Part shown: piece by piece, positions 44,045 to 54,411 of the stretch
How positions within the stretch are numbered: the stretch's first letter is position 1
Layout of the letters: every line of letters begins with the position of its first letter
UHGV virus genome: UHGV-1383976
Direction: 5' to 3' (one strand)
Length of the DNA: 64,000 nucleotides
From: a virus
The notes under the pieces: generated by a model
The model's input: the letters and a program-made list of their open reading frames with translations, nothing else
What the model was told of the DNA's origin: nothing
Database searches by the model: none
Program-made: the position numbers and the translations under genes

Positions 44045-44130
44045 GCGGGTGTGTCGGAATGGGTAGACGATATGGACTTAAAATCCATTGGCGGGATGCT
44101 GTACGGGTTCGAGTCCCGTCACCCGTACCA
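44045..44130 (+). tRNA. tRNA-Leu (anticodon TAA), type II
   Basis: Cloverleaf by eye. Anticodon stem atgga/tccat with loop cttaaaa, a long variable arm, T-loop gggttcgagtccc and encoded CCA. Confidence 0.75.
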
Positions 44131-44313
44131 AATGATAATAAGTAGTGCAGTGAATTCTTCCTAAGCCAATGTGTATGGTAGGCCAATCAAGATAATTAGG
44201 GTTAAGTATTCATGGGTCATGCACGGCTCTGCTTATTATCATTACCAACTGTCGTTCTCAATAGCGACTTAGAAGCAATTCTCAAAAAGTATCAAAAAGA
44301 AAGGAGAAAAGGG

Positions 44314-45216
44314 ATGTCATTTTTCGTAAGGACAGCAACTGATCGGTATGGGGATACAAATAGTTATCCTCGTTGGGGCAGAATAGTGGGATGCGCTATA
44401 GGAGCACTACTTGTTCTGATTATAATTCTCTCTTGTTTCACCAAAGTTCCTACTGGTAATACTGGTATCGTCACTACATTTGGTAAGGTTGAGAATTATA
44501 CGCTGGATTCAGGTTTTCATCTAAAGGCTCCATGGCAGAAGATAGTTAAGATGGATAATCGCGTTCAGAAGCAGAGTATTGATTTGATGTGTTTTTCTTC
44601 TGATATTCAGGAAGTATCTATGACTTATACAATTAACTTCCAGATTAGTAAGAGTGATGCAATGACGATTTATTCTACCATCGGAACTCATTATTATGAA
44701 ACCGTTATTATGCCTTGTATTACTGAGTCAGTTAAGACAGTTTGCGCACGATATACCGCTGAAGAGTTAGTGGGCATGAGAAGTGAACTTGCTTCAGCAA
44801 TAGAGGCAGATCTTTCTGAGAAGCTAATTAATTACAACATAGAGCTTGTTTCTACCTCTGTTGAGAACATGGATTTTACTGATGTCTTTACTGATGCTGT
44901 TGAAGCAAAGCAGGTTGCAGCACAGAATAAGCTCACTGCACAGACTCGTGCCGAGCAGGAAGTTATTGAAGCCGAAGCGGCGGCTAAGGTTCAGGTAATT
45001 CAGGCACAGGCTGATGCAGATGCCATGGTTGCTAAGGCCCAAGCCGAGGCAGAAGCAACTCGGATTCGTGCAGAAGCTGAAGCAGAAGCCAATGCAAAGG
45101 TCGCAGCGTCTCTAACAAATGCACTAATTGATTATACTTATGCGCAGCATTGGGATGGTAAGTATCCTACCTATTATGGTGGTAACGGTACAACTCCTGT
45201 TATCGATCTTAGATAA
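44314..45216 (+). CDS. SPFH/band-7 (prohibitin/HflK-like) domain protein with Ala/Glu-rich coiled-coil tail
   Basis: The listed ORF (44212) starts inside the tRNA spacer. The real start is the ATG at 44314 (RBS AAAGGAG). A TM segment is followed by the SPFH core (TGNTGIVTTFGKV...) and AEAEA repeats. Confidence 0.65.
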   Translation: MSFFVRTATDRYGDTNSYPRWGRIVGCAIGALLVLIIILSCFTKVPTGNTGIVTTFGKVENYTLDSGFHLKAPWQKIVKMDNRVQKQSIDLMCFSSDIQEVSMTYTINFQISKSDAMTIYSTIGTHYYETVIMPCITESVKTVCARYTAEELVGMRSELASAIEADLSEKLINYNIELVSTSVENMDFTDVFTDAVEAKQVAAQNKLTAQTRAEQEVIEAEAAAKVQVIQAQADADAMVAKAQAEAEATRIRAEAEAEANAKVAASLTNALIDYTYAQHWDGKYPTYYGGNGTTPVIDLR

Positions 45217-45254
45217 ATAAATGAGCTGGCATCTCAATAAACTGCCATTAATAT

Positions 45255-45330
45255 GCCCAGATAGCTCAGCAGGTAGAGCAGAGGATTGAAGATCCCCGTG
45301 TCGCTAGTTCGATTCTGGCTCTGGGCACCA
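45255..45330 (+). tRNA. tRNA-Phe (GAA)
   Basis: 76 nt with perfect acceptor gcccaga/tctgggc, anticodon loop ttGAAga, T-loop ttcgatt and CCA. Closely resembles the canonical bacterial tRNA-Phe (GAA) anticodon arm. Confidence 0.85.
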
Positions 45331-45501
45331 TTTGGGATTGTTTACTGTTTCTTGTTCCCTTAATTGCAAAAGTGCATGAGTAGCAATTAAAAAACATCTA
45401 AGCGGCGTGTATCGTTGGTCATTCGAGGGCTATGTCAAGGCTTAAAAGACCACAGTCGATTGGGGTTGGTAAACCTCCTGCGGGGAAGCTTCCATTATTA
45501 T

Positions 45502-45584
45502 GGGCGAGTGGTGGAACTGGTAGACACAGTAGCCTTAGGAGCTACCACTTCAGTGTAGGGGTTCGAGTCCCCTCCCGCCCACCA
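45502..45584 (+). tRNA. tRNA-Leu (TAG), type II
   Basis: Anticodon stem gtagc/gctac with loop ctTAGga, a long variable arm, T-loop ttcgagt and CCA. Confidence 0.75.
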
Positions 45585-45704
45585 TAAGTCTCCAAGAGGA
45601 TGGATTCCGGCTAAACTACCACCGGCGCACAATGTGTGATATGTGGCTTTGTCATTTGTGGAGACTATAATAAATAAAAACGAAAGTAAGCCGTTTTGAA
45701 ATAT

Positions 45705-45789
45705 GGGGGATTGGTGAAATAGGTAGACACGTGGCACTCAAAATGCTATGGCGAGAGCCGTATCAGTTCAAATCTGATATCCCCTACCA
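45705..45789 (+). tRNA. tRNA-Leu (CAA), type II
   Basis: Anticodon stem tggca/tgcta with loop ctCAAaa, long variable arm tggcgagagccgta, T-loop ttcaaat and CCA. Confidence 0.75.
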
Positions 45790-45812
45790 TTTACACAATA
45801 AAAGGAGATAAA

Positions 45813-46397
45813 ATGTCAAAGAATTTTTACATTAGTGACACCCATTTTGGACACGCTAACATTCTGAGATTTGATAGACGCCCATTCAATTCTGTTGAAG
45901 AAATGAACGCCGCGCTCATCAAGAATTGGAATGACGCAGTTGACCCGAATGACAATATTTACATACTGGGCGATTTTTGCTGGGGCAAGTCTGATGAATG
46001 GATTGATATTTTGTCTCAGCTCCAAGGCAACAAATATCTTATTGCAGGCAACCATGACTTGCGTAATCCTCCTTCTACTGTGCGGCGGTTCTTTCAGGAT
46101 TGGCGCGACTACAAAGAAATTTCTAACAACGATCGTAAGGTTATAATGTGTCATTATCCGATTCCATTTTACAAGTCAGATTACAACTCAAACACTTATA
46201 TGTTATTTGGTCATTTGCATACAACATTTGAGAATGAATATCTGGAAAATTTGCGATATCAAATAGAAAATGATCCTTATGAGCGGCCAGCCAAAAATCT
46301 TTGTCAGTTTTATAACGTCGGCTGTATGATGCCGTGGATGGACTATACACCGCGCACATTGGATGAAATTGTAGATGGATTTGCTAAGTTCCATTGA
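45813..46397 (+). CDS. Calcineurin-like metallophosphoesterase
   Basis: DTHFGH, GDF and GNHD motifs. 194 aa. RBS AAAGGAGA. Confidence 0.7.
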   Translation: MSKNFYISDTHFGHANILRFDRRPFNSVEEMNAALIKNWNDAVDPNDNIYILGDFCWGKSDEWIDILSQLQGNKYLIAGNHDLRNPPSTVRRFFQDWRDYKEISNNDRKVIMCHYPIPFYKSDYNSNTYMLFGHLHTTFENEYLENLRYQIENDPYERPAKNLCQFYNVGCMMPWMDYTPRTLDEIVDGFAKFH

Positions 46398-46409
46398 AGG
46401 GGAATAGGC

Positions 46410-46961
46410 ATGGCAGTAAATAAAGGATATTTAACAGCAAAAACAGATAAAGAGTCTGATGAAGTATATACACCAGCATATGCTGTTCGACCTTTGGTTA
46501 AGTATTTGCGATTTTTTGAAAAAATAAAGGGGCATCCAATAAAAATTTGGTGTCCTTTTGATACGCAAAGCTCGCAATATGTTCAAGTGTTTAGAGAAGC
46601 TGGTTTTGAGGTTATTCACTCTCATATTGAGGAAGGGAAAAATTTCTTTTTCTACGAACCCGATGAACGGTATGATATTATTATTTCGAATCCACCTTTT
46701 TCACAAAAGGACAATGTTTTGAAACGTTTGTTTGAGTTAAACAAGCCATATGCGATGTTATTGCCAATTCCAGCCTTGCAAGGGCAAAAGCGTTTCCCTT
46801 ATATAAAAGATGGACTACAATATCTTGGTTTTGATAAGAGAATTAATTATTATACTAATGCAGATTTTTCTCAAGTGCAAAAAGGGGTTTCTTTTGGTTC
46901 TTGTTATTTGTGTAAGCAATTTCTTCCAAGAGATTTAATTCTTGAAGAGTTGGAAGCGTAA
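46410..46961 (+). CDS. Phage Dam-like N6-adenine DNA methyltransferase (NPPF motif)
   Basis: DEVYTP followed by DIIISNPPFS. The small size (183 aa) is typical of phage Dam-family MTases. Confidence 0.55.
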   Translation: MAVNKGYLTAKTDKESDEVYTPAYAVRPLVKYLRFFEKIKGHPIKIWCPFDTQSSQYVQVFREAGFEVIHSHIEEGKNFFFYEPDERYDIIISNPPFSQKDNVLKRLFELNKPYAMLLPIPALQGQKRFPYIKDGLQYLGFDKRINYYTNADFSQVQKGVSFGSCYLCKQFLPRDLILEELEA

Positions 46962-46966
46962 AAAAT

Positions 46967-47054
46967 GCGGGATGAACTCAGACGGCTCTGAAACCGGTCT
47001 TGAAAACCGTGGGCAGGCAAAACCTGTGGGGATCGACACCTCCGTCCCGCGCCA
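46967..47054 (+). tRNA. tRNA-Ser (TGA), type II
   Basis: Acceptor gcgggat/gtcccgc, anticodon loop ctTGAaa (4 bp plus C-T at the stem top), a long variable arm and CCA. Confidence 0.65.
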
Positions 47055-47058
47055 ATAT

Positions 47059-47144
47059 GCGGAGTAAATTTAGAAGGTCTAAAGCTCCCCTGCTAAGGGA
47101 TGCGTGGTGAAAACCATGGGGTTCGCGTCCTCTGCTCCGCGCCA
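47059..47144 (+). tRNA. tRNA-Ser (GCT), type II
   Basis: Acceptor gcggagt/gctccgc, anticodon loop ctGCTaa, variable arm gtggtgaaaaccat and CCA. Same architecture as the neighbouring Ser tRNA. Confidence 0.65.
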
Positions 47145-47232
47145 GCCCCATCTTCAGTTCTATAGCTGGTGAAGATGGATAGGCGATGAAGTATAGCAAT
47201 AATATGGCATGAGAACTATGATAGTGTTTCAT

Positions 47233-47322
47233 GAGAGCGTAACTCAGTCGGTAGAGTTTTATAGCGTGAAGGGATATGCTATTGAATGCCCTTAGTCGCC
47301 AGTTCGAATCTGGCCGCTCTCA
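47233..47322 (+). tRNA. Aberrant tRNA-like gene (perfect acceptor, D and T arms; about 17 extra nt in the anticodon/variable region; no encoded CCA)
   Basis: Acceptor gagagcg/cgctctc, D-arm actcagtcggtagagt, T-arm gccagttcgaatctggc. The central 40 nt do not give a canonical 5-7-5 anticodon arm. A 5-bp atagc/gctat helix encloses a 12-nt loop. Confidence 0.4.
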
Positions 47323-47350
47323 TTAAAAATATATATGAAGAGGAATAGTT

Positions 47351-47605
47351 ATGGCAATTAATATCATTAGTAAAGGAATAGATTTAAATAATCCTACCTA
47401 TGAAACACAGTGTCCTCATTGTAAATGTGTGTTTACCTATCAAGATTCTGATACTACTCAAAAACCTACTGGTAGATATTATAAAGATTTTGAGGAGTAT
47501 TTCATTAAGATGGATGATTGCAATAGGAAAGAAATTGCTGTGTATATTGATTGCCCTTGGTGCCATGAAAGAAACCATGTGAAAGATAAATATGTAAAAA
47601 TATAA
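47351..47605 (+). CDS. Small zinc-ribbon protein
   Basis: 84 aa. CPHCKC...CPWCHE. RBS GAGGAA. Confidence 0.45.
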   Translation: MAINIISKGIDLNNPTYETQCPHCKCVFTYQDSDTTQKPTGRYYKDFEEYFIKMDDCNRKEIAVYIDCPWCHERNHVKDKYVKI

Positions 47606-47610
47606 TAAAT

Positions 47611-48153
47611 GGCTCAGTAGCTCAGAGGCAGAGCGTGCGGCTGTTTACTTGACCTTATCATTCTTTATGAAAAAGATAATGAATAGTAAGCAAAAAGGAA
47701 ACATTACAGAACTTGAAACAATGTTAGCATTTCTAAAACTTGGTTATAATGTTTTAACTCCATATGGAGATTGTGAGAGATATGACTTTGTTGTAGATGT
47801 TAATGGAAAATTTATTCGAGTTCAAGCTAAAACATCAAATACTGAAGATGATGGTGCATCATTTAAATTTTCTTGTAGAAGTTGCAATAGAAAAGATGGT
47901 AAAATTGTGCATCATATATATTTAAGCGAAGAAATTGATTACTTCGTAACTACTTTTAATGGAAAATGTTATTTAATTCCAGTTGAAGAGTGCGGAGCTG
48001 ATAAAAGACTTCGTATTCTTCCAACAAAAAATGGACAGGTAAGAGGTATTACTTGGGCAAAAGATTATGAATTGGAGGAAGTAGTAAAGAATTGGTAAGC
48101 TGATGTGTAAGCAACCGCAAGGTCGAGATATCGTAATTCTCCTGAGCCTCCAT
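47611..48153 (+). tRNA. tRNA (Asn GTT or Asp GTC) interrupted in the anticodon loop by an insertion of about 467 nt that carries a PD-(D/E)XK endonuclease ORF
   Basis: The 5' half is 47611-47645: ggctcag-ta-gctc-agaggca-gagc-g-tgcgg-ctgtt. The 3' half is 48113-48153: aa-ccgca-aggtc-gagat-atcgtaa-ttctc-ctgagcc-t-cca. The acceptor pairs 7/7, the D-stem 4/4 and the anticodon stem tgcgg/ccgca 5/5, with CCA encoded. Confidence 0.55.
47649..48098 (+). CDS. Small PD-(D/E)XK nuclease-like protein inside the interrupted tRNA (homing endonuclease candidate)
   Basis: ERYDFVVDVNGKFIRVQAKT is a D...(E/Q)xK signature. Paralog of 49599..49958. The start may be the internal Met at 47667. Confidence 0.5.
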   Translation: MTLSFFMKKIMNSKQKGNITELETMLAFLKLGYNVLTPYGDCERYDFVVDVNGKFIRVQAKTSNTEDDGASFKFSCRSCNRKDGKIVHHIYLSEEIDYFVTTFNGKCYLIPVEECGADKRLRILPTKNGQVRGITWAKDYELEEVVKNW

Positions 48154-48158
48154 ATTAT

Positions 48159-48234
48159 GCGCCATTAGCTCAGTTGGTAGAGCATGGCACTTTTAATGCT
48201 GGGGTCTGCGGTTCAAGTCCGCAATGGCGCACCA
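48159..48234 (+). tRNA. tRNA-Lys (TTT)
   Basis: Perfect acceptor gcgccat/atggcgc, anticodon loop ctTTTaa, T-loop ttcaagt and CCA. Confidence 0.8.
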
Positions 48235-48254
48235 TAAATTTTGGAGGAAGTAAA

Positions 48255-48515
48255 ATGAAGCTGACAGAGAAAGGGACAATTGTATTTGCCGCTGCGTTAG
48301 AGCATTGTCCCAATGAACCTTTTACAGCGGCCAGTTTATCAACAAAGTGTGGCCTTCCTATTTCTGCAGCTACACTCAATGGTATCACCAATCAGGGACT
48401 TATGACTCGACTTGGCGGTTCGCCCGTTAAGTTTGAGTTAGTTTCTAACGCGAAAGACTTGTATAACAAGGCGCGCGAAGGCAAATCGGCGAATGAAAAT
48501 TTAAATAAAGCGTAG
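48255..48515 (+). CDS. Small putative DNA-binding protein (MKLTEK paralog 2)
   Basis: The listed ORF 48174.. begins inside tRNA-Lys. The real start is the ATG at 48255 with RBS GGAGGAAG. Paralog of 26606..26860. Confidence 0.45.
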   Translation: MKLTEKGTIVFAAALEHCPNEPFTAASLSTKCGLPISAATLNGITNQGLMTRLGGSPVKFELVSNAKDLYNKAREGKSANENLNKA

Positions 48516-48581
48516 GTTGCGAAAAATGATGAGTTTTATACTCAATATCAAGACATTGAAAAAGAGATTCTGCAGTATGAC

Positions 48582-49358
48582 TTGCGTGGTAAAAAGGTTT
48601 TATGTAATTGTAATGATGGTTTGACAAGTGAGTTCTTAAATTATTTTGTCAATAATTTTGATTGTCTTGAACTTGATGAACTTGTTTGTTTGACTTATAA
48701 TAAAGATGGAAAGGCATATAAGTATACCAAGCGTCCTAAAGTTGACCTTATGGTTGAACCACTCATCGGTTCTGGTGCATTTGATTCACAGGAAGGCCGA
48801 GATGCTCTTGCCGCTTGTGATATTGTTATAACAAATCCTCCCTTTAGTCAATTTCGAGATTTTGTCAATTTGATTTTGTCTTACAAAAAAGATTTTTTGA
48901 TAATTGGCAGTAAAAATGCTATTACCTACAAAGAATTTTTTCCACTTTTAATGAGTGGTAAAGTTCATATTGGCAATTTCAATGTTTCTACTTTTAAACA
49001 GCCAGATGGTACTGATAAAAAATTTGGTAATATCGGTTGGTTTACGACTCTTTCTGTTGTAAAAGCGGCACAACCAATTCCTTTAACAGCAACCTATGAT
49101 CCGCAAAATTATCCTACTTATGATAACTTCCGTGCAATTGAAGTAAGTCGCACAGCTAATATTCCTAAGGACTATGATGGCGTAATGGGGGTTCCTATTT
49201 CATTTCTGGACAAATTTTGTCCTACTCAATTTAAAATTGTTGGATGGAGTCGTCATAATGACGAAGGAATGGATGGCGGATACTGGACGGGTGGTTGTGC
49301 TGATGCTACTATAAATGGTAAGCAAGTTTATCGCAGAATTTTGATTCAGAAAATTTGA
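48582..49358 (+). CDS. Second N6-adenine DNA methyltransferase-like protein (NPPF motif)
   Basis: CDIVITNPPFSQFRDF. 258 aa. Paralogous catalytic motif to the CDS at 46410..46961. Confidence 0.5.
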   Translation: MRGKKVLCNCNDGLTSEFLNYFVNNFDCLELDELVCLTYNKDGKAYKYTKRPKVDLMVEPLIGSGAFDSQEGRDALAACDIVITNPPFSQFRDFVNLILSYKKDFLIIGSKNAITYKEFFPLLMSGKVHIGNFNVSTFKQPDGTDKKFGNIGWFTTLSVVKAAQPIPLTATYDPQNYPTYDNFRAIEVSRTANIPKDYDGVMGVPISFLDKFCPTQFKIVGWSRHNDEGMDGGYWTGGCADATINGKQVYRRILIQKI

Positions 49359-49383
49359 TTTTTATTAAAATTTTCGATATAAT
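49355..49383 (+). promoter_or_regulatory. Consensus phage promoter with duplicated leader
   Basis: TTGATT at 49355-49360, N17, TATAAT at 49378-49383, then ATATATATAGAAAGTTGAGAGAGA, identical to the leader at 43389-43412. Confidence 0.55.
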
Positions 49384-49598
49384 ATATATAGAAAGTTGAG
49401 AGAGAAACTTCCAGAGGTTGCGAATTAGCTATTCAATACAAAATCTCTCAAAATGATAAGGTTTTCGGTGTTTTACTTATCGGTTTTCTATGCAAAATGG
49501 TTCTAACAAGCCAGCGTGCGCGCGAGTAAAAGTTGTTAATAAGCGGTTGGCATACGTGATAAGCCGTTGCCCCAGCGAGAAGATTTAATAAATCTTCT

Positions 49599-49958
49599 TT
49601 GTTGGTGGTGTTTAATAAAAATGCGTCAGTAGCAACCCAGTGGTATGATTTGATTATAGAAAAAGATGATAAATTTGAAACAGTACAATGTAAGTGTACT
49701 GGTTCTCAGAACAACGTCATTAGTCTAAAGTCTTGTGGCGGTACAAAAGGTGAAGCTTATGACAATGTTCTTAATCATTCTGGGCTTGATAAATTATTTT
49801 GCGTGGATATAAATGGTAATATGTACGTGATCCCGATGTCAGAGGTTGTGGCATCTGGAAATACTAAGCAAATTACTTTACGTACTGAACCCACAGCAAA
49901 TAATCAAGGTTTTCAAACTCATAAATTTCGAGTTCAATTCTCGTTTCAAGCGTCGTAA
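49599..49958 (+). CDS. PD-(D/E)XK nuclease-like paralog (TTG start, long 5' leader)
   Basis: Shares YDxxxxxxxKFxxVQxK...SxKSC and a C-terminal (M/C)Y(L/V)IP(V/M)xE with the CDS at 47649..48098. No clear RBS. Confidence 0.35.
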   Translation: MLVVFNKNASVATQWYDLIIEKDDKFETVQCKCTGSQNNVISLKSCGGTKGEAYDNVLNHSGLDKLFCVDINGNMYVIPMSEVVASGNTKQITLRTEPTANNQGFQTHKFRVQFSFQAS

Positions 49959-50009
49959 ACCCGTTTCCTTCGAGAGTAACTGGATCGACACCAGTCTGAC
50001 GCACCATTT

Positions 50010-50083
50010 CGGGAATGTGGTGTAATGGTAGCACACTTGATTTGGGGTCAAGGAGAGTGGTTCGAATCCAACATTTCCGACCA
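50010..50083 (+). tRNA. tRNA-Pro (TGG)
   Basis: C1-G72 acceptor cgggaat/atttccg, anticodon stem cttga/tcaag with loop ttTGGgg, T-loop ttcgaat and CCA. Confidence 0.7.
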
Positions 50084-50087
50084 AGAT

Positions 50088-50174
50088 GCTGAGTTCCCAT
50101 AGTGGTCGATTGGAGCGGTCTTGTAAGCCGCAGACTTCGTGTCCGCATCAGTTCGAATCTGATACTCAGCTCCA
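50088..50174 (+). tRNA. Type II tRNA with ambiguous anticodon (TGT by canonical parse; Tyr-like architecture)
   Basis: Acceptor gctgagt/actcagc, 3-bp D-stem, anticodon stem gcggt/gccgc with loop cttgtaa, a 15-nt variable arm, T-arm atcagttcgaatctgat and CCA. Confidence 0.55.
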
Positions 50175-50178
50175 CTAT

Positions 50179-50254
50179 AAGGGAGTAGCCCAATAGGTAA
50201 GGCAGCAGTCTCCAAAACTGAAGATTAAAGGTTCGAGTCCTTTCTCTCTTGCCA
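50179..50254 (+). tRNA. tRNA-Trp (CCA)
   Basis: Acceptor aagggag/ctctctt, anticodon loop ctCCAaa, T-arm aaaggttcgagtccttt and CCA. Confidence 0.7.
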
Positions 50255-50287
50255 ATAATTTCATTTTTCAAATTTCCTTTCTTAAAA

Positions 50288-50317
50288 TTTGACTTTTTCA
50301 AAAAATCTTGATATAAT
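50288..50317 (+). promoter_or_regulatory. Consensus phage promoter in front of the GC-rich ORF-free region
   Basis: AAAATTTGACTTTTT, TTGACT at 50288-50293, N18, TATAAT at 50312-50317. Confidence 0.55.
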
Positions 50318-50324
50318 ATATACA

Positions 50325-51060
50325 TAAGATAAAGAAAAGAAAAAGTCAAAAGGAGGACAATGCTAGTGCCACCTACACGTGGTGTCCTCTGTTTTCGCTA
50401 AGAGCGCTGGCATATATCCAATTAAATAATACTAACTCAGTGAAGACGGAATTCGATGTTCCGGCTGAGAAATTCCAGCTAGCACAGCAGAAACGAAACA
50501 AGGATACTTGTGGATACTGGACTGAGAGGCCATCGAGAGATGAGCCGAAGTAGAGCGGTCGCTCAAGTGGGAAGAAGAGCAGGAATTGTGCTGAGTGAAT
50601 CGCAAGCAAACGCAGCCGTGGAGTGGCGAGCGCAATAGACAGCTTGGTGAATAGCCAAGCCGAACCCAAGTTAGGTCTTAGTTGGTGCCTGTGGCAATCC
50701 TTGGGAAAACCAATAAGCTCGTTCCGTTGAGACGACAGGGAATGTGAAATCTGTCTTTGACACTCTACAGCATCCGAGTAGCGGAACACAACGGGGACTT
50801 ATAGAAAAGATGGTCAGTAATAATAGAAATTGCTATTTTATCTTTCTGAACATCCCGTGAAAGGTAGAGGTAATCAACCCTCTGGCGGATTAGGCGACAT
50901 TAGACACTTGGGCTATCCAAGAGTAACAAGTCAATGTTGTTGCTGGGGTAAGAAGTGTATGGGCGACGGCCTGTATGCTCAGACTTATCTCCCGCGTGGC
51001 AGAATATGCTTGAAGGTTTATCGAGGTAGGGCGAAGGCCCAGTAATATTTAGTTGGATTT
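50325..51060 (+). ncRNA. Candidate large structured non-coding RNA (about 0.7 kb, GC-rich, no credible ORF)
   Basis: Local GC is well above the roughly 36% background. Only short mutually overlapping ORFs occur on both strands, none with an RBS. The region is preceded by a consensus promoter, contains many stable local hairpins and is flanked by tRNA-Trp and tRNA-Met. Confidence 0.4.
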
Positions 51061-51064
51061 ATAT

Positions 51065-51137
51065 GGCAGGACGAGAAGGTTCTCCATTTGGCCTCATAAG
51101 CCAGATTTCGTGGGTTCGATTCCCACTCCTGCATCCA
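51065..51137 (+). tRNA. tRNA-Met or tRNA-Ile2 (CAT), short D-arm
   Basis: Anticodon stem ttggc/gccag with loop ctCATaa, T-arm gtgggttcgattcccac and CCA. G1-A72 mismatch and a compact D-arm. Confidence 0.55.
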
Positions 51138-51140
51138 TAT

Positions 51141-51215
51141 GTCGTATTGGTGTTAGTGGCAGCACGATAGCCTTCCAAGCTATATGGAGGAGTTCGAGTC
51201 TCCTATACGACTCCA
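51141..51215 (+). tRNA. tRNA-Gly (TCC)
   Basis: Acceptor gtcgtat/atacgac, anticodon stem atagc/gctat with loop ctTCCaa, T-arm aggagttcgagtctcct and CCA. Confidence 0.7.
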
Positions 51216-51361
51216 TTTTAGAAATGTCTTGAACGACAGGAGGTTTTGCTTATGGATATAACAAAATCTAATGAGGACTGCGGTCCAACGAACAGGACAA
51301 AGAGTTGGGCCTCTCTATAAAAAGGCCCTCGTAAGAAAATTTGGAAAGGAAGTAAAGTAAA

Positions 51362-51775
51362 ATGAAGTATTATAGTGATGTTCTTCATACGCTGTTTGAT
51401 ACTCAGGATGCGCTTGAGGAAGCCGAAGCGAAGAAAACCGCGGCAGATGCTGAGAAAGTACATGCAAAAGAAACGGCTAGAAAACGTAGAGAAGAAGATA
51501 AAGAACGTTTCCTTGAGTTGAGAAAGAAGTTCAATAAGATCAGCACTGAGTATGACAAGACATCTAAAGAGTATATGGACTATGCTGATAAGATGATGCA
51601 GGAGTATTCATTAGATGCTGTGCTGGATTGGCTTTCTGATGCTTTTCTTTATGATTGTGCCACAGCTAAGACGAAAGCAGATGCATCATCTACCACAACT
51701 GCTACCACGAAAACTGCGCGGGAGCCTGAAAACTTGGGAGAAATTCTTGCCCGTATTTTTGAGGATATGCGCTGA
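51362..51775 (+). CDS. Hypothetical coiled-coil protein
   Basis: 137 aa, Lys/Glu/Ala-rich. RBS AAAGGAAG. Confidence 0.45.
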   Translation: MKYYSDVLHTLFDTQDALEEAEAKKTAADAEKVHAKETARKRREEDKERFLELRKKFNKISTEYDKTSKEYMDYADKMMQEYSLDAVLDWLSDAFLYDCATAKTKADASSTTTATTKTAREPENLGEILARIFEDMR

Positions 51776-51779
51776 GAAT

Positions 51780-52340
51780 TTTGAATAAATTGGCGCGATT
51801 GATTATCAAATCGTCCCACGGAGTTGAAGCTAAAACGTTAGCGGTGAATATGGCCATTCCCGCAAGCTCGGCGGTTTGTTAGGCAACCGCGCGGATGTAA
51901 ATTATTGATAGGAAACTTTGGTTTAATTTACTCACTGAAGTTCTCCAAAAGTCGAACTAGAGCCTAAACTGAGTTCGCAGTGCTGAGGCCGGCATACGCT
52001 CGGAGAGGATGCGTTATTGAGCTAATTGGATTAGTGTCAATGTGAGGCAACGGTGGCCAACTCTTAGAGAGCCACGCGACAGAGTTATGCTAAAAGGCAA
52101 TGCCCAGTATCGGTGCCACTAGGGTTGATAGACAAGTAGTAAAAGTCAGGTGAAGACAATACCGGCTGACATAATTGGGACGTAGTCATAGGCGTAGGCC
52201 GTGCCAAAACTAAAAATCAAAGTGTGCGGCACACGAAACCCAAGTCAGATGCGGGCGATTGAAACGGCGCCCTCAACCCATATAAGGTTTTACAAGAGAT
52301 TTTCCTTGTGTTAGACTAAAAAATCTCTTTTTTGTATAAA
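51780..52340 (+). ncRNA. Second candidate large structured non-coding RNA (about 0.55 kb, GC-rich, completely free of ORFs of 60 aa or more)
   Basis: No ORF is listed on either strand across 51776-52525. GC is elevated. The region ends in an intrinsic terminator (52296-52340) just before tRNA-Gln. Confidence 0.4.
52296..52340 (+). terminator. Rho-independent terminator at the end of the ORF-free region
   Basis: Hairpin aagagatttt...aaaatctctt followed by TTTTTTG. Confidence 0.55.
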
Positions 52341-52343
52341 TTT

Positions 52344-52418
52344 AGAGGTATAGTGTAATTGGCAACACATCGGCCTTTGACGCCGTATTTATAGGTTCGA
52401 GTCCTGTTACCTCTGCCA
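52344..52418 (+). tRNA. tRNA-Gln (TTG)
   Basis: Acceptor agaggta/tacctct, anticodon loop ctTTGac, T-arm ataggttcgagtcctgt and CCA. Confidence 0.65.
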
Positions 52419-52525
52419 ACAGTTCCACATTAGAAAAACCTAATGTGGACTTTTTTATATATATCAGCTACAAAAAATCTACTTAGAAATGCGGGCAACC
52501 GCAAAACACATCAAAGGAGGAGCCT

Positions 52526-53160: not shown

Positions 53161-53481
53161 ATGGATAAATATACTGGCTATTATGAGTGGCATCCATCAG
53201 AACAAGGACTTGAGGATTTTTATTCTGGCCTTTTTACACCTGCAGGGATGGGCTTGGTTGAAAACCAGTATTTGATTATCTATGACTCCGAAGATAAGGT
53301 TATAGATAAATATTTTTGTAAGAACAATGAATTTGAAAAGGTTCATTATATGGCGCTTCAAAGCGATTACTGTGGGGTTATCAAACCACGCAATGTATAT
53401 CAGGAATTGGCTATTCATTCCCTTATGGATAGACGTGTTCCCGTAAAAGTTTTGGGTGGCGTCTTTGGCTCGGGTAAATAA
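53161..53481 (+). CDS. PhoH-like ATPase, exon 1 (ends inside the Walker A motif)
   Basis: Ends ...AIHSLMDRRVPVKVLGGVFGSGK followed by a stop. GxxGSGK is a P-loop truncated just before the expected T/S. The remainder of PhoH is encoded by 54409..54942. Confidence 0.6.
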   Translation: MDKYTGYYEWHPSEQGLEDFYSGLFTPAGMGLVENQYLIIYDSEDKVIDKYFCKNNEFEKVHYMALQSDYCGVIKPRNVYQELAIHSLMDRRVPVKVLGGVFGSGK

Positions 53482-54411
53482 CTTGCCCCTTCTTAGGGCG
53501 ACCTAAGAATGAAAATCGCGTGAATTGCTGGAAGCCTAAGCCGCAAGGTATGGTAATCAGCAGCCAAGCCGTTTTAGCAACGGAAGGTTCAACGACTATC
53601 CCGGCAGGGAGTAGGGAGCAATCCCGAAGCGCGCGACAACTTTTGTTTTGTTTTTATTTTAATAAAGGAGGTGAGGTTATAAATAAGTGGACAGATGAAC
53701 AAAAAGCAGAAATTATTGATGATTATACCAAAAAAGGTATGACTTTGGCAGAGATTGGAAAAAAATTTCATTCTAAAGGAGATACAATTAGTAAATATCT
53801 AAAGTCTTGGGATATTCCCATCAATCGTAGAAAGAAAAATCGGCTTATGAATGAAAAGTTTTTTTCTATAATTGACTCAGCTGAAAAGAGTTATTTTCTG
53901 GGCTTGTTATTCGCTGATGGTTCAGTTGTTTTAAATAGCGAGCGGGCGCCATATGTTTCTTTAGAATTAGTAGAAAAGGACAAAGAAATATTAGAAATTT
54001 TCCGTTCATTATTAAATTGTCAAAATGACTTATACTACAATAAGCGAGATAATCGGAAGAATGGAACATATACTTTTGGAGTAAGAAGTCAATTACTAGC
54101 TGATGATTTAGCTAAATTTAATATCATTCCAAATAAAACTTATGAAACAACCCAAGTAATTTTCCCAGAAAATTTTCTTATTGATTTTCTAAGAGGGTAT
54201 ATTGATGGCGATGGCTCTATTTATCAAAATGTTTATAAGGCCGTTTGGAATGGACAAGATGCTAAACGAATTATAAACATTCTCTATTTAAAGAACGATG
54301 GCATTGCGCTCTCTCGAAAACGAGAACGAGCTAAGTTAGCTCAACAAAACAAAAGTTGATGATATAGTCTAATCCCTTTTTAAAAATATCGGGAAACCGA
54401 GGGTATAAATG
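53476..54411 (+). mobile_element. Group I intron (IA-like) in the phoH-like gene, carrying a LAGLIDADG homing endonuclease ORF
   Basis: Q-like AATCAGCAGCC (53555-53565), R-like GGTTCAACGACTATCCC (53586-53602) and S-like TGATGATATAGTCTAATCC (54357-54376). R/S give a GACTAT/ATAGTC P7 pairing. Proposed splice sites are after U53475 and after G54411, giving an in-frame junction GSG/KDLL. Confidence 0.6.
53520..54359 (+). CDS. LAGLIDADG homing endonuclease (double-motif)
   Basis: Two LAGLIDADG motifs, LGLLFADGSV and LRGYIDGDGSI. The true start is uncertain because the upstream part of the listed ORF overlaps conserved intron elements. The likely start is near 53680, after AAAGGAGG. Confidence 0.75.
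   Translation: MNCWKPKPQGMVISSQAVLATEGSTTIPAGSREQSRSARQLLFCFYFNKGGEVINKWTDEQKAEIIDDYTKKGMTLAEIGKKFHSKGDTISKYLKSWDIPINRRKKNRLMNEKFFSIIDSAEKSYFLGLLFADGSVVLNSERAPYVSLELVEKDKEILEIFRSLLNCQNDLYYNKRDNRKNGTYTFGVRSQLLADDLAKFNIIPNKTYETTQVIFPENFLIDFLRGYIDGDGSIYQNVYKAVWNGQDAKRIINILYLKNDGIALSRKRERAKLAQQNKS

Follow-up and report, generated by a model that had tools for sequence, protein, structure and literature searches.

A full-length ROOL RNA gene within a tRNA island of a distantly SPbeta-like, uncultivated phage

Analysis of a 64,000-nt stretch of the viral genome UHGV-1383976 (hereafter the window) revealed a full-length ROOL RNA gene on the plus strand at positions 50412-51059, i.e. a member of a previously known family (Weinberg et al. 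2017, PMC5737381), in a context known for that family. Taken as a whole, this locus is very probably a ROOL gene that is transcribed from its own phage promoter and whose RNA, cut free at its 3' end by RNase P, self-assembles into an octameric cage. The RNase P release and the cage assembly are the most likely course of events by analogy with homologous RNAs.

A cmscan search with 4227 Rfam families assigned 648 nt (50412-51059, +) to ROOL (RF03087), with a score of 271.8 bits, or almost threefold the gathering score of 99.1, an E-value of 4e-61 and a full-length match covering model positions 1-574 of 574. ROOL was the only non-tRNA RNA family with E < 0.01 over 50200-51150 and the sole family matching 50325-51060 at E up to 1. 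When 50200-51150 was scanned permissively, the only additions were the flanking tRNAs and one chance match, far below threshold, on the strand opposite the tRNA(CAU). The GOLLD family (RF01998) gave no match, whether in 50200-51150 with E allowed up to 1 or in the whole window at the gathering score, and no covariance-model match was obtained within 50325-51060 for tmRNA, RNase P, or group I and group II introns. The original prediction had proposed for 50325-51060 a large ornate non-coding RNA of the GOLLD or ROOL type, and had seen no tmRNA or RNase P signals there. Both statements are borne out, the former by the ROOL score together with a covarying structure and the latter by the Rfam scans, which found ROOL and none of the other families named. 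Its alternative of an undescribed RNA is excluded by the full-length match to RF03087, and the extent that it gave stands in part: 50412-51059 is the RNA proper, whereas 50325-50411 is a promoter-proximal leader outside the family model.

The structure line of the Rfam model was transferred to the window sequence and then projected onto homologues. A total of 154 consensus pairs could be mapped, 129 of them canonical in the window. Homologues were gathered with a conserved 17-mer (GCTCAGACTTATCTCCC), which yielded 26 viral contigs, all carrying a ROOL at the Rfam gathering level; three are close relatives, 92-98% identical (one is cut at its 5' end), and the others are 47-67% identical. For covariation, 17 ROOLs were aligned with plain MAFFT; these share 47-67% identity with that of the window apart from two near-identical clade members. 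In this alignment, (i) 72.6% of cells were paired with the given structure versus 34-48% when partners were slid by 1-3 columns, (ii) 108 pairs were changed on both sides versus 54-71 in the slid controls, (iii) the covariation score was 0.426 versus at most 0.157, and (iv) none of 500 shuffles reached the observed value on any pairing or covariation measure. The covariation among homologues, named in the original prediction as a check, is therefore strong. The closing helix P1 (helix 1), whose 5' strand (50418-50433, +) pairs with about 51041-51056 according to the structure line of the covariance model, has 14 of its 16 pairs changed on both sides across ROOLs and is also formed in the minimum free energy fold. 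The latter reaches -210 kcal/mol for 50412-51059 (z = -3.98 relative to shuffles), in agreement with the stable helices initially proposed. The worst-fitting part of the structure comprises consensus helices 10-13 (50593-50613 with 51000-51024) in the register of the covariance model; a one-base register shift between these two segments restores a perfect AAGCA/UGCUU helix.

The blocks conserved among ROOLs, as defined by the covariance-model alignment and by the invariant columns of the MAFFT alignment, are all present in the window: CAGUGAAGA, CAAUAGAC, GUAGC, UUCUGAA, GUGAAAG, GGUAAUCAA, CUGGGGUAAGAAGU, GCUCAGACUUAUCUCCC and GGGCGAAGGCCC. Two segments are variable. A variable AT-rich linker (50787-50844, +) has the lowest posterior probabilities in the covariance-model alignment, and about half of its positions differ in the clade variant L030, the core being at least 94% identical; in solved ROOLs, the linker is disordered and lies inside the cage. 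A 45-nt insertion (50896-50940, +), at a place where the model has 5 nt, corresponds to the clade-specific long form of a variable peripheral hairpin whose length also differs in other ROOLs. The clade of the window comprises four variants with cores 94-98% identical, and the few substitutions between them are compensatory or wobble-compatible, as in the change of GAGCG/CGCUC to GAGCA/UGCUC or of CCCAAG/CUUGGG to UCCAAG/CUUGGA. Compensatory changes of this kind, combined with a freely diverging linker, are the pattern expected for a structurally selected RNA rather than for a relic.

With respect to inter-subunit contacts, the reference is env-120, a rumen ROOL (PDB 9MDS), which was shown by cryo-EM (Kretsch et al. 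2025, PMC12286853) to form a D4 homo-octameric hollow cage of about 28 nm. Protein-free octamer assembly is known for env-120 and two bacterial ROOLs (PMC12286853, PMC12515178). Positions were mapped onto env-120 with a sequence of it lacking about 9-10 nt, and its 5' 100 nt are too divergent for sequence alignment. Bridge B4 of env-120 is a conserved inter-subunit kissing loop in which G307-A310 pair with U332-C335 (PMC12286853, supplement), and it is the only bridge mapped with confidence. Its equivalents in the window are the B4 loop GGUG (50684-50687, +) and its partner AACC (50708-50711, +), between which three of four Watson-Crick pairs are possible (GGU/ACC). Among 73 unique ROOLs, B4 has four pairs in 48 and three in 24, and its inner pairs covary across the family (GGU/ACC, GGC/GCC, GAC/GUC and GAU/AUC). 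The residues of bridge B3 align tentatively to C50640 and G50649, and one residue of bridge B2 was mapped, also tentatively. Furthermore, the UCUGA that borders the linker on its 3' side (50845-50849, +) is complementary to the UCAGA of J17/18 (50979-50983), a pairing that covaries as GCUGA/UCAGC in other ROOLs and that is a family pseudoknot, or possibly bridge B7 (for the context, PMC12286853). The L18 loop GACG (50965-50968, +) contains a self-complementary CG and belongs to the commonest L18 loop type among the ROOLs collected, env-120 having UUGCUAA instead; it is tentatively equated with the symmetric kissing loop (bridge B6) in env-120.

The gene lies between tRNA-Trp (50179-50254) upstream and a tRNA(CAU) downstream, which starts at 51060 according to ARAGORN or at 51066 according to Rfam. 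The position between two tRNAs that had been reported initially is confirmed by both programs, with a spacer of about 805 nt in place of about 730 nt. ROOLs are located in phages or prophages, often within tRNA arrays or next to them, and the window holds an island of 12 tRNAs (44045-52418) along with phage replication and tail genes. The GC content is 46.3% for 50325-51060 and 46.6% for the ROOL core versus 38.7% for the 64,000-nt window, so that the initial statement of a GC content above the phage background stands. Only 1.6% of the 648-nt windows are as GC-rich as the ROOL core, and the other GC peak is also within the tRNA island.

A sigma-70/sigma-A-type promoter is predicted upstream of the gene (50289-50317, +), with a TTGACT box, a 17-nt spacer containing an extended -10 TG, and a TATAAT box. 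It is nearly invariant in the clade relatives. An extended consensus, aaaaTTGACTTTTT-N-TGATATAATATAT, is common to six sites of the window, namely 50289 (+), which faces the ROOL, and five minus-strand sites (27058, 26968, 24565, 18632 and 7616), these five facing the replication genes. Since six sites share this extended consensus, the label of phage consensus promoter given in the original prediction is fair; the site spans 50289-50317 and matches at 11 of 12 promoter positions. The sharing of a promoter type by the ROOL gene and replication genes suggests that the ROOL is expressed with the same gene class.

The promoter is followed by a 94-nt leader (50318-50411, +), which extends to the ROOL start and is outside the ROOL model. 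It shows 1-2 substitutions among the four clade variants, and no similar leader was found in 88 other ROOL loci, so it is clade-specific. Its fold is no more stable than that of shuffles (z = -0.47). It contains a weak, terminator-like hairpin, GGAGGAC.../...GUCCUC (50352-50390, +), followed by UGUUUU, which could limit read-through. An SD-like AAGGAGG (50350-50356) lies 3 nt before the ATG at 50360 of a 13-codon ORF (50360-50401), and this AAGGAGG doubles as the 5' arm of the leader hairpin. The leader could act as a weak attenuator or terminator, as a 5' stabiliser such as those known in Bacillota or as the template of a leader peptide, or it could have no role.

Downstream, the tRNA(CAU), atypical though conserved (51065-51137, +; ARAGORN 51060-51137, Rfam 51066-51133) has an encoded CCA, a score just at threshold with the Rfam tRNA model (29.1 bits), a short 4-nt D-loop and a possible G1-A72 mismatch; a compensatory change in its T-stem in the variant L030 suggests that it is a functional tRNA. 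The next gene is tRNA-Gly(UCC) (51141-51215, +), found by ARAGORN and Rfam. As the ROOL stops 5-6 nt before the tRNA(CAU), RNase P cleavage of this tRNA would define the 3' end of the ROOL. The proposed sequence of events would be as follows. The host RNA polymerase would start at the promoter 50289-50317, with a transcription start near 50325 (50324-50326), and produce a transcript made of the 94-nt leader, the ROOL, the tRNA(CAU) and the tRNA-Gly, which may run to a strong terminator at 52424-52449. An RNase P cut at the 5' end of the tRNA(CAU) would leave about 5 nt of tail on the ROOL 3' end, the RNA would fold into the flat monomer of the family with P1 as its closing helix, and eight monomers would assemble without protein into a hollow D4 cage of about 28 nm, as in env-120. 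According to the work of Ling et al. (2025), as relayed in PMC12515178, a tRNA precursor fused to the ROOL 3' end does not disturb octamer formation; on that account, even an unprocessed precursor could assemble. Published proposals for the ROOL cage are that, during infection, it encapsulates or displays cargo, for instance tRNAs or parts of ribosomes. As a separate observation, nine contigs bearing ROOLs of the main group (L008-L010, L013-L015, L020, L024 and L026) carry a phage tmRNA of about 86 bits in the same tRNA array, about 1.2 kb downstream.

Other explanations of the region were considered. That the region encodes a protein is extremely improbable. The ORFs of 50325-51060 overlap on both strands, as noted initially, and the longest encodes 138 aa on the minus strand (50373-50789); this ORF does exist and is called as a gene on a public contig, and yet it is preceded by no SD, and no match was obtained in a Pfam and PHROG search with the ORFs of the region. 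No conserved ORF was found across ROOL homologues: among the 22 ROOL sequences compared, open stretches vary in length, frame and place, the longest being only 54-62 codons in two of the homologues, and the substitutions track RNA pairing instead. The original claim that the region has no ORF with a ribosome-binding site calls for a small correction, namely the SD-like AAGGAGG of the leader in front of the 13-codon ORF. The gene call concerned, on Logan contig L028 (1104-1520, equivalent to 50373-50789 of the window, minus strand), is probably an artefact, i.e. a spurious hypothetical protein in databases. Equally, there is hardly any chance that another or an undescribed large RNA (GOLLD, a group I or group II intron, tmRNA, RNase P or a new class) merely resembles ROOL here. 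The setting in a phage tRNA island is shared with GOLLD, and a group I intron is located 2.4 kb away; against this, ROOL is the sole non-tRNA family with E < 0.01 over 50200-51150, it is matched over the full length of its model, and it is the structure of that family that covaries.

A ROOL relic, having lost its function or its ability to assemble, would account for a score below that of the main ROOL group (271.8 versus about 400 bits), for the three pairs out of four in B4 and for the one helix region that fits the consensus poorly. This is most unlikely, since a three-pair B4 occurs in a third of ROOLs, the core is kept at 94-98% identity in four or more variants of the phage, where compensatory changes stand beside a diverging linker, and the gene has a strong predicted promoter of its own. 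Instead of forming a free cage, the RNA could have its main role in cis, where it would serve the two downstream tRNAs as a structured leader or as a scaffold for their processing. The distance of 5-6 nt to the tRNA(CAU), the tightest among 46 distinct ROOL clusters, would fit such a role, as would the presence of a same-strand tRNA at most 36 nt from a ROOL end in 13 of these 46 clusters. This reading is nonetheless improbable: solved ROOLs assemble on their own, and 15 of the 46 clusters have no same-strand tRNA in the available DNA (flanks being short in some), so that the role of the family cannot depend on a tRNA in cis. The preferred explanation is still a ROOL gene whose product would form a free cage.

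The phage that carries this gene is uncultivated, about 129 kb in size and distantly SPbeta-like, without a cultured close relative. The window encodes a YorL/PolIII-alpha-like polymerase, topoisomerase II subunits, a DnaB-like helicase and tail genes, and the polymerase, aligned over 95-99% of its length, is 38% identical at the amino acid level to the YorL-type polymerase of SPbeta-like Bacillus phages. GenBank phages gave no match when searched at the nucleotide level with the region or with a 20-kb flank. Copies of the locus that are 100% identical are found on a Logan contig and on a 129,281-bp contig of an ENA metagenome, and near-identical ROOLs occur on contigs labelled human-gut metagenome. 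Human-gut samples in which this phage occurs include those behind ERZ27261302, ERR1137000 and ORTG01000137. Species-representative bacterial genomes were scanned with the clade-specific and the 'GACG-type' ROOL motifs, and no carrier was found among them.

Several other elements of the tRNA island and its surroundings are unusual. In brief, these include: a tRNA-like gene (46966-47051, +) with a sub-threshold match to the tRNA-Sec model (41.2 bits, gathering score 47) that is not called by ARAGORN; a 'tRNA-Phe' (47232-47323, +) of 90-92 nt with its anticodon at position 37; and an 87-nt tRNA (50088-50174, +) whose anticodon is UGU and whose variable arm is long. A group I intron was also detected with Rfam (66.7 bits at 53466-53741, +; weak second match at 54178-54391), which carries a LAGLIDADG ORF (53520-54359). 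As this intron is located between a 106-aa ORF (53161-53481) and an ORF annotated as PhoH on the matching public contig, it probably splits a phoH gene.

A second segment without substantial ORFs (51776-52343, +) was observed farther downstream in the island. It is about 560 nt long, with a GC content of 45-47% and ORFs of at most 57 aa. Identity among the clade relatives is 91-92% for this segment and only 68-84% for the neighbouring ORF (51362-51775); the indels of the segment among relatives are of 1, 2 and 7 nt, and its substitutions show no codon periodicity. A sequence within it, GUCAG-GUGAAGAC..CCGG-CUGAC, is similar to the 5' hairpin of ROOL. It gave no Rfam match even at E = 10, and no homologue was found in other loci, outside the clade. 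Its minimum free energy is close to that of shuffles (z = -0.18), and the four sequences at hand are close and too few for covariation. This segment may be a second, undescribed non-coding RNA. It is conceivable, though rather doubtful, that a phage 'RNA operon' of about 2.1 kb has the ROOL as its first gene and extends from the promoter at 50289 to the terminator at 52424-52449, with this segment included. Such an operon would hold the ROOL, the two abutting tRNAs, a small ORF, a tRNA-Gln and the non-coding segment 51776-52343; if so, the latter could be a large RNA made together with the ROOL and possibly acting with it.

These results firmly annotate a region that appears as a hypothetical protein in one public gene call or more, and they add a divergent ROOL subclade from phages in human-gut metagenomes. 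The locus is also a clean natural case for ROOL biogenesis, as it combines a dedicated promoter, predicted to be strong, with a conserved leader and with a tRNA located 5-6 nt from the 3' end.

Compared with known systems, the phage resembles the SPbeta-like Bacillus phages SPBc2, phi3T and Goe13 in having a genome of about 130 kb and a YorL-type DNA polymerase; it differs from them in the lack of nucleotide similarity to any GenBank phage and in the origin of the near-identical contigs, which come from human-gut metagenomes. GOLLD (RF01998) is likewise a large ornate RNA found near tRNAs in phages and prophages, and it forms an RNA-only cage, in that case a 14-mer, but its sequence and fold are unrelated and it has no match in the window. 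With the ROOL family, the RNA of the window shares the full-length fit to the model, the helices, the conserved motifs, the position of the linker, the B4 complementarity, the UCUGA/UCAGA pairing, the phage origin and the tRNA-island setting. Its length of 648 nt compares with a family mean of 581 nt and with 659 nt for env-120. It represents a separate ROOL subclade, with no more than 70% identity to any other ROOL collected and 44% identity to env-120. Its distinguishing features are a longer peripheral hairpin (the 45-nt insertion), a B4 with three of four pairs and a GACG loop in L18, as well as its own consensus promoter, a 94-nt clade-specific leader and a gap of 5-6 nt to the following tRNA.
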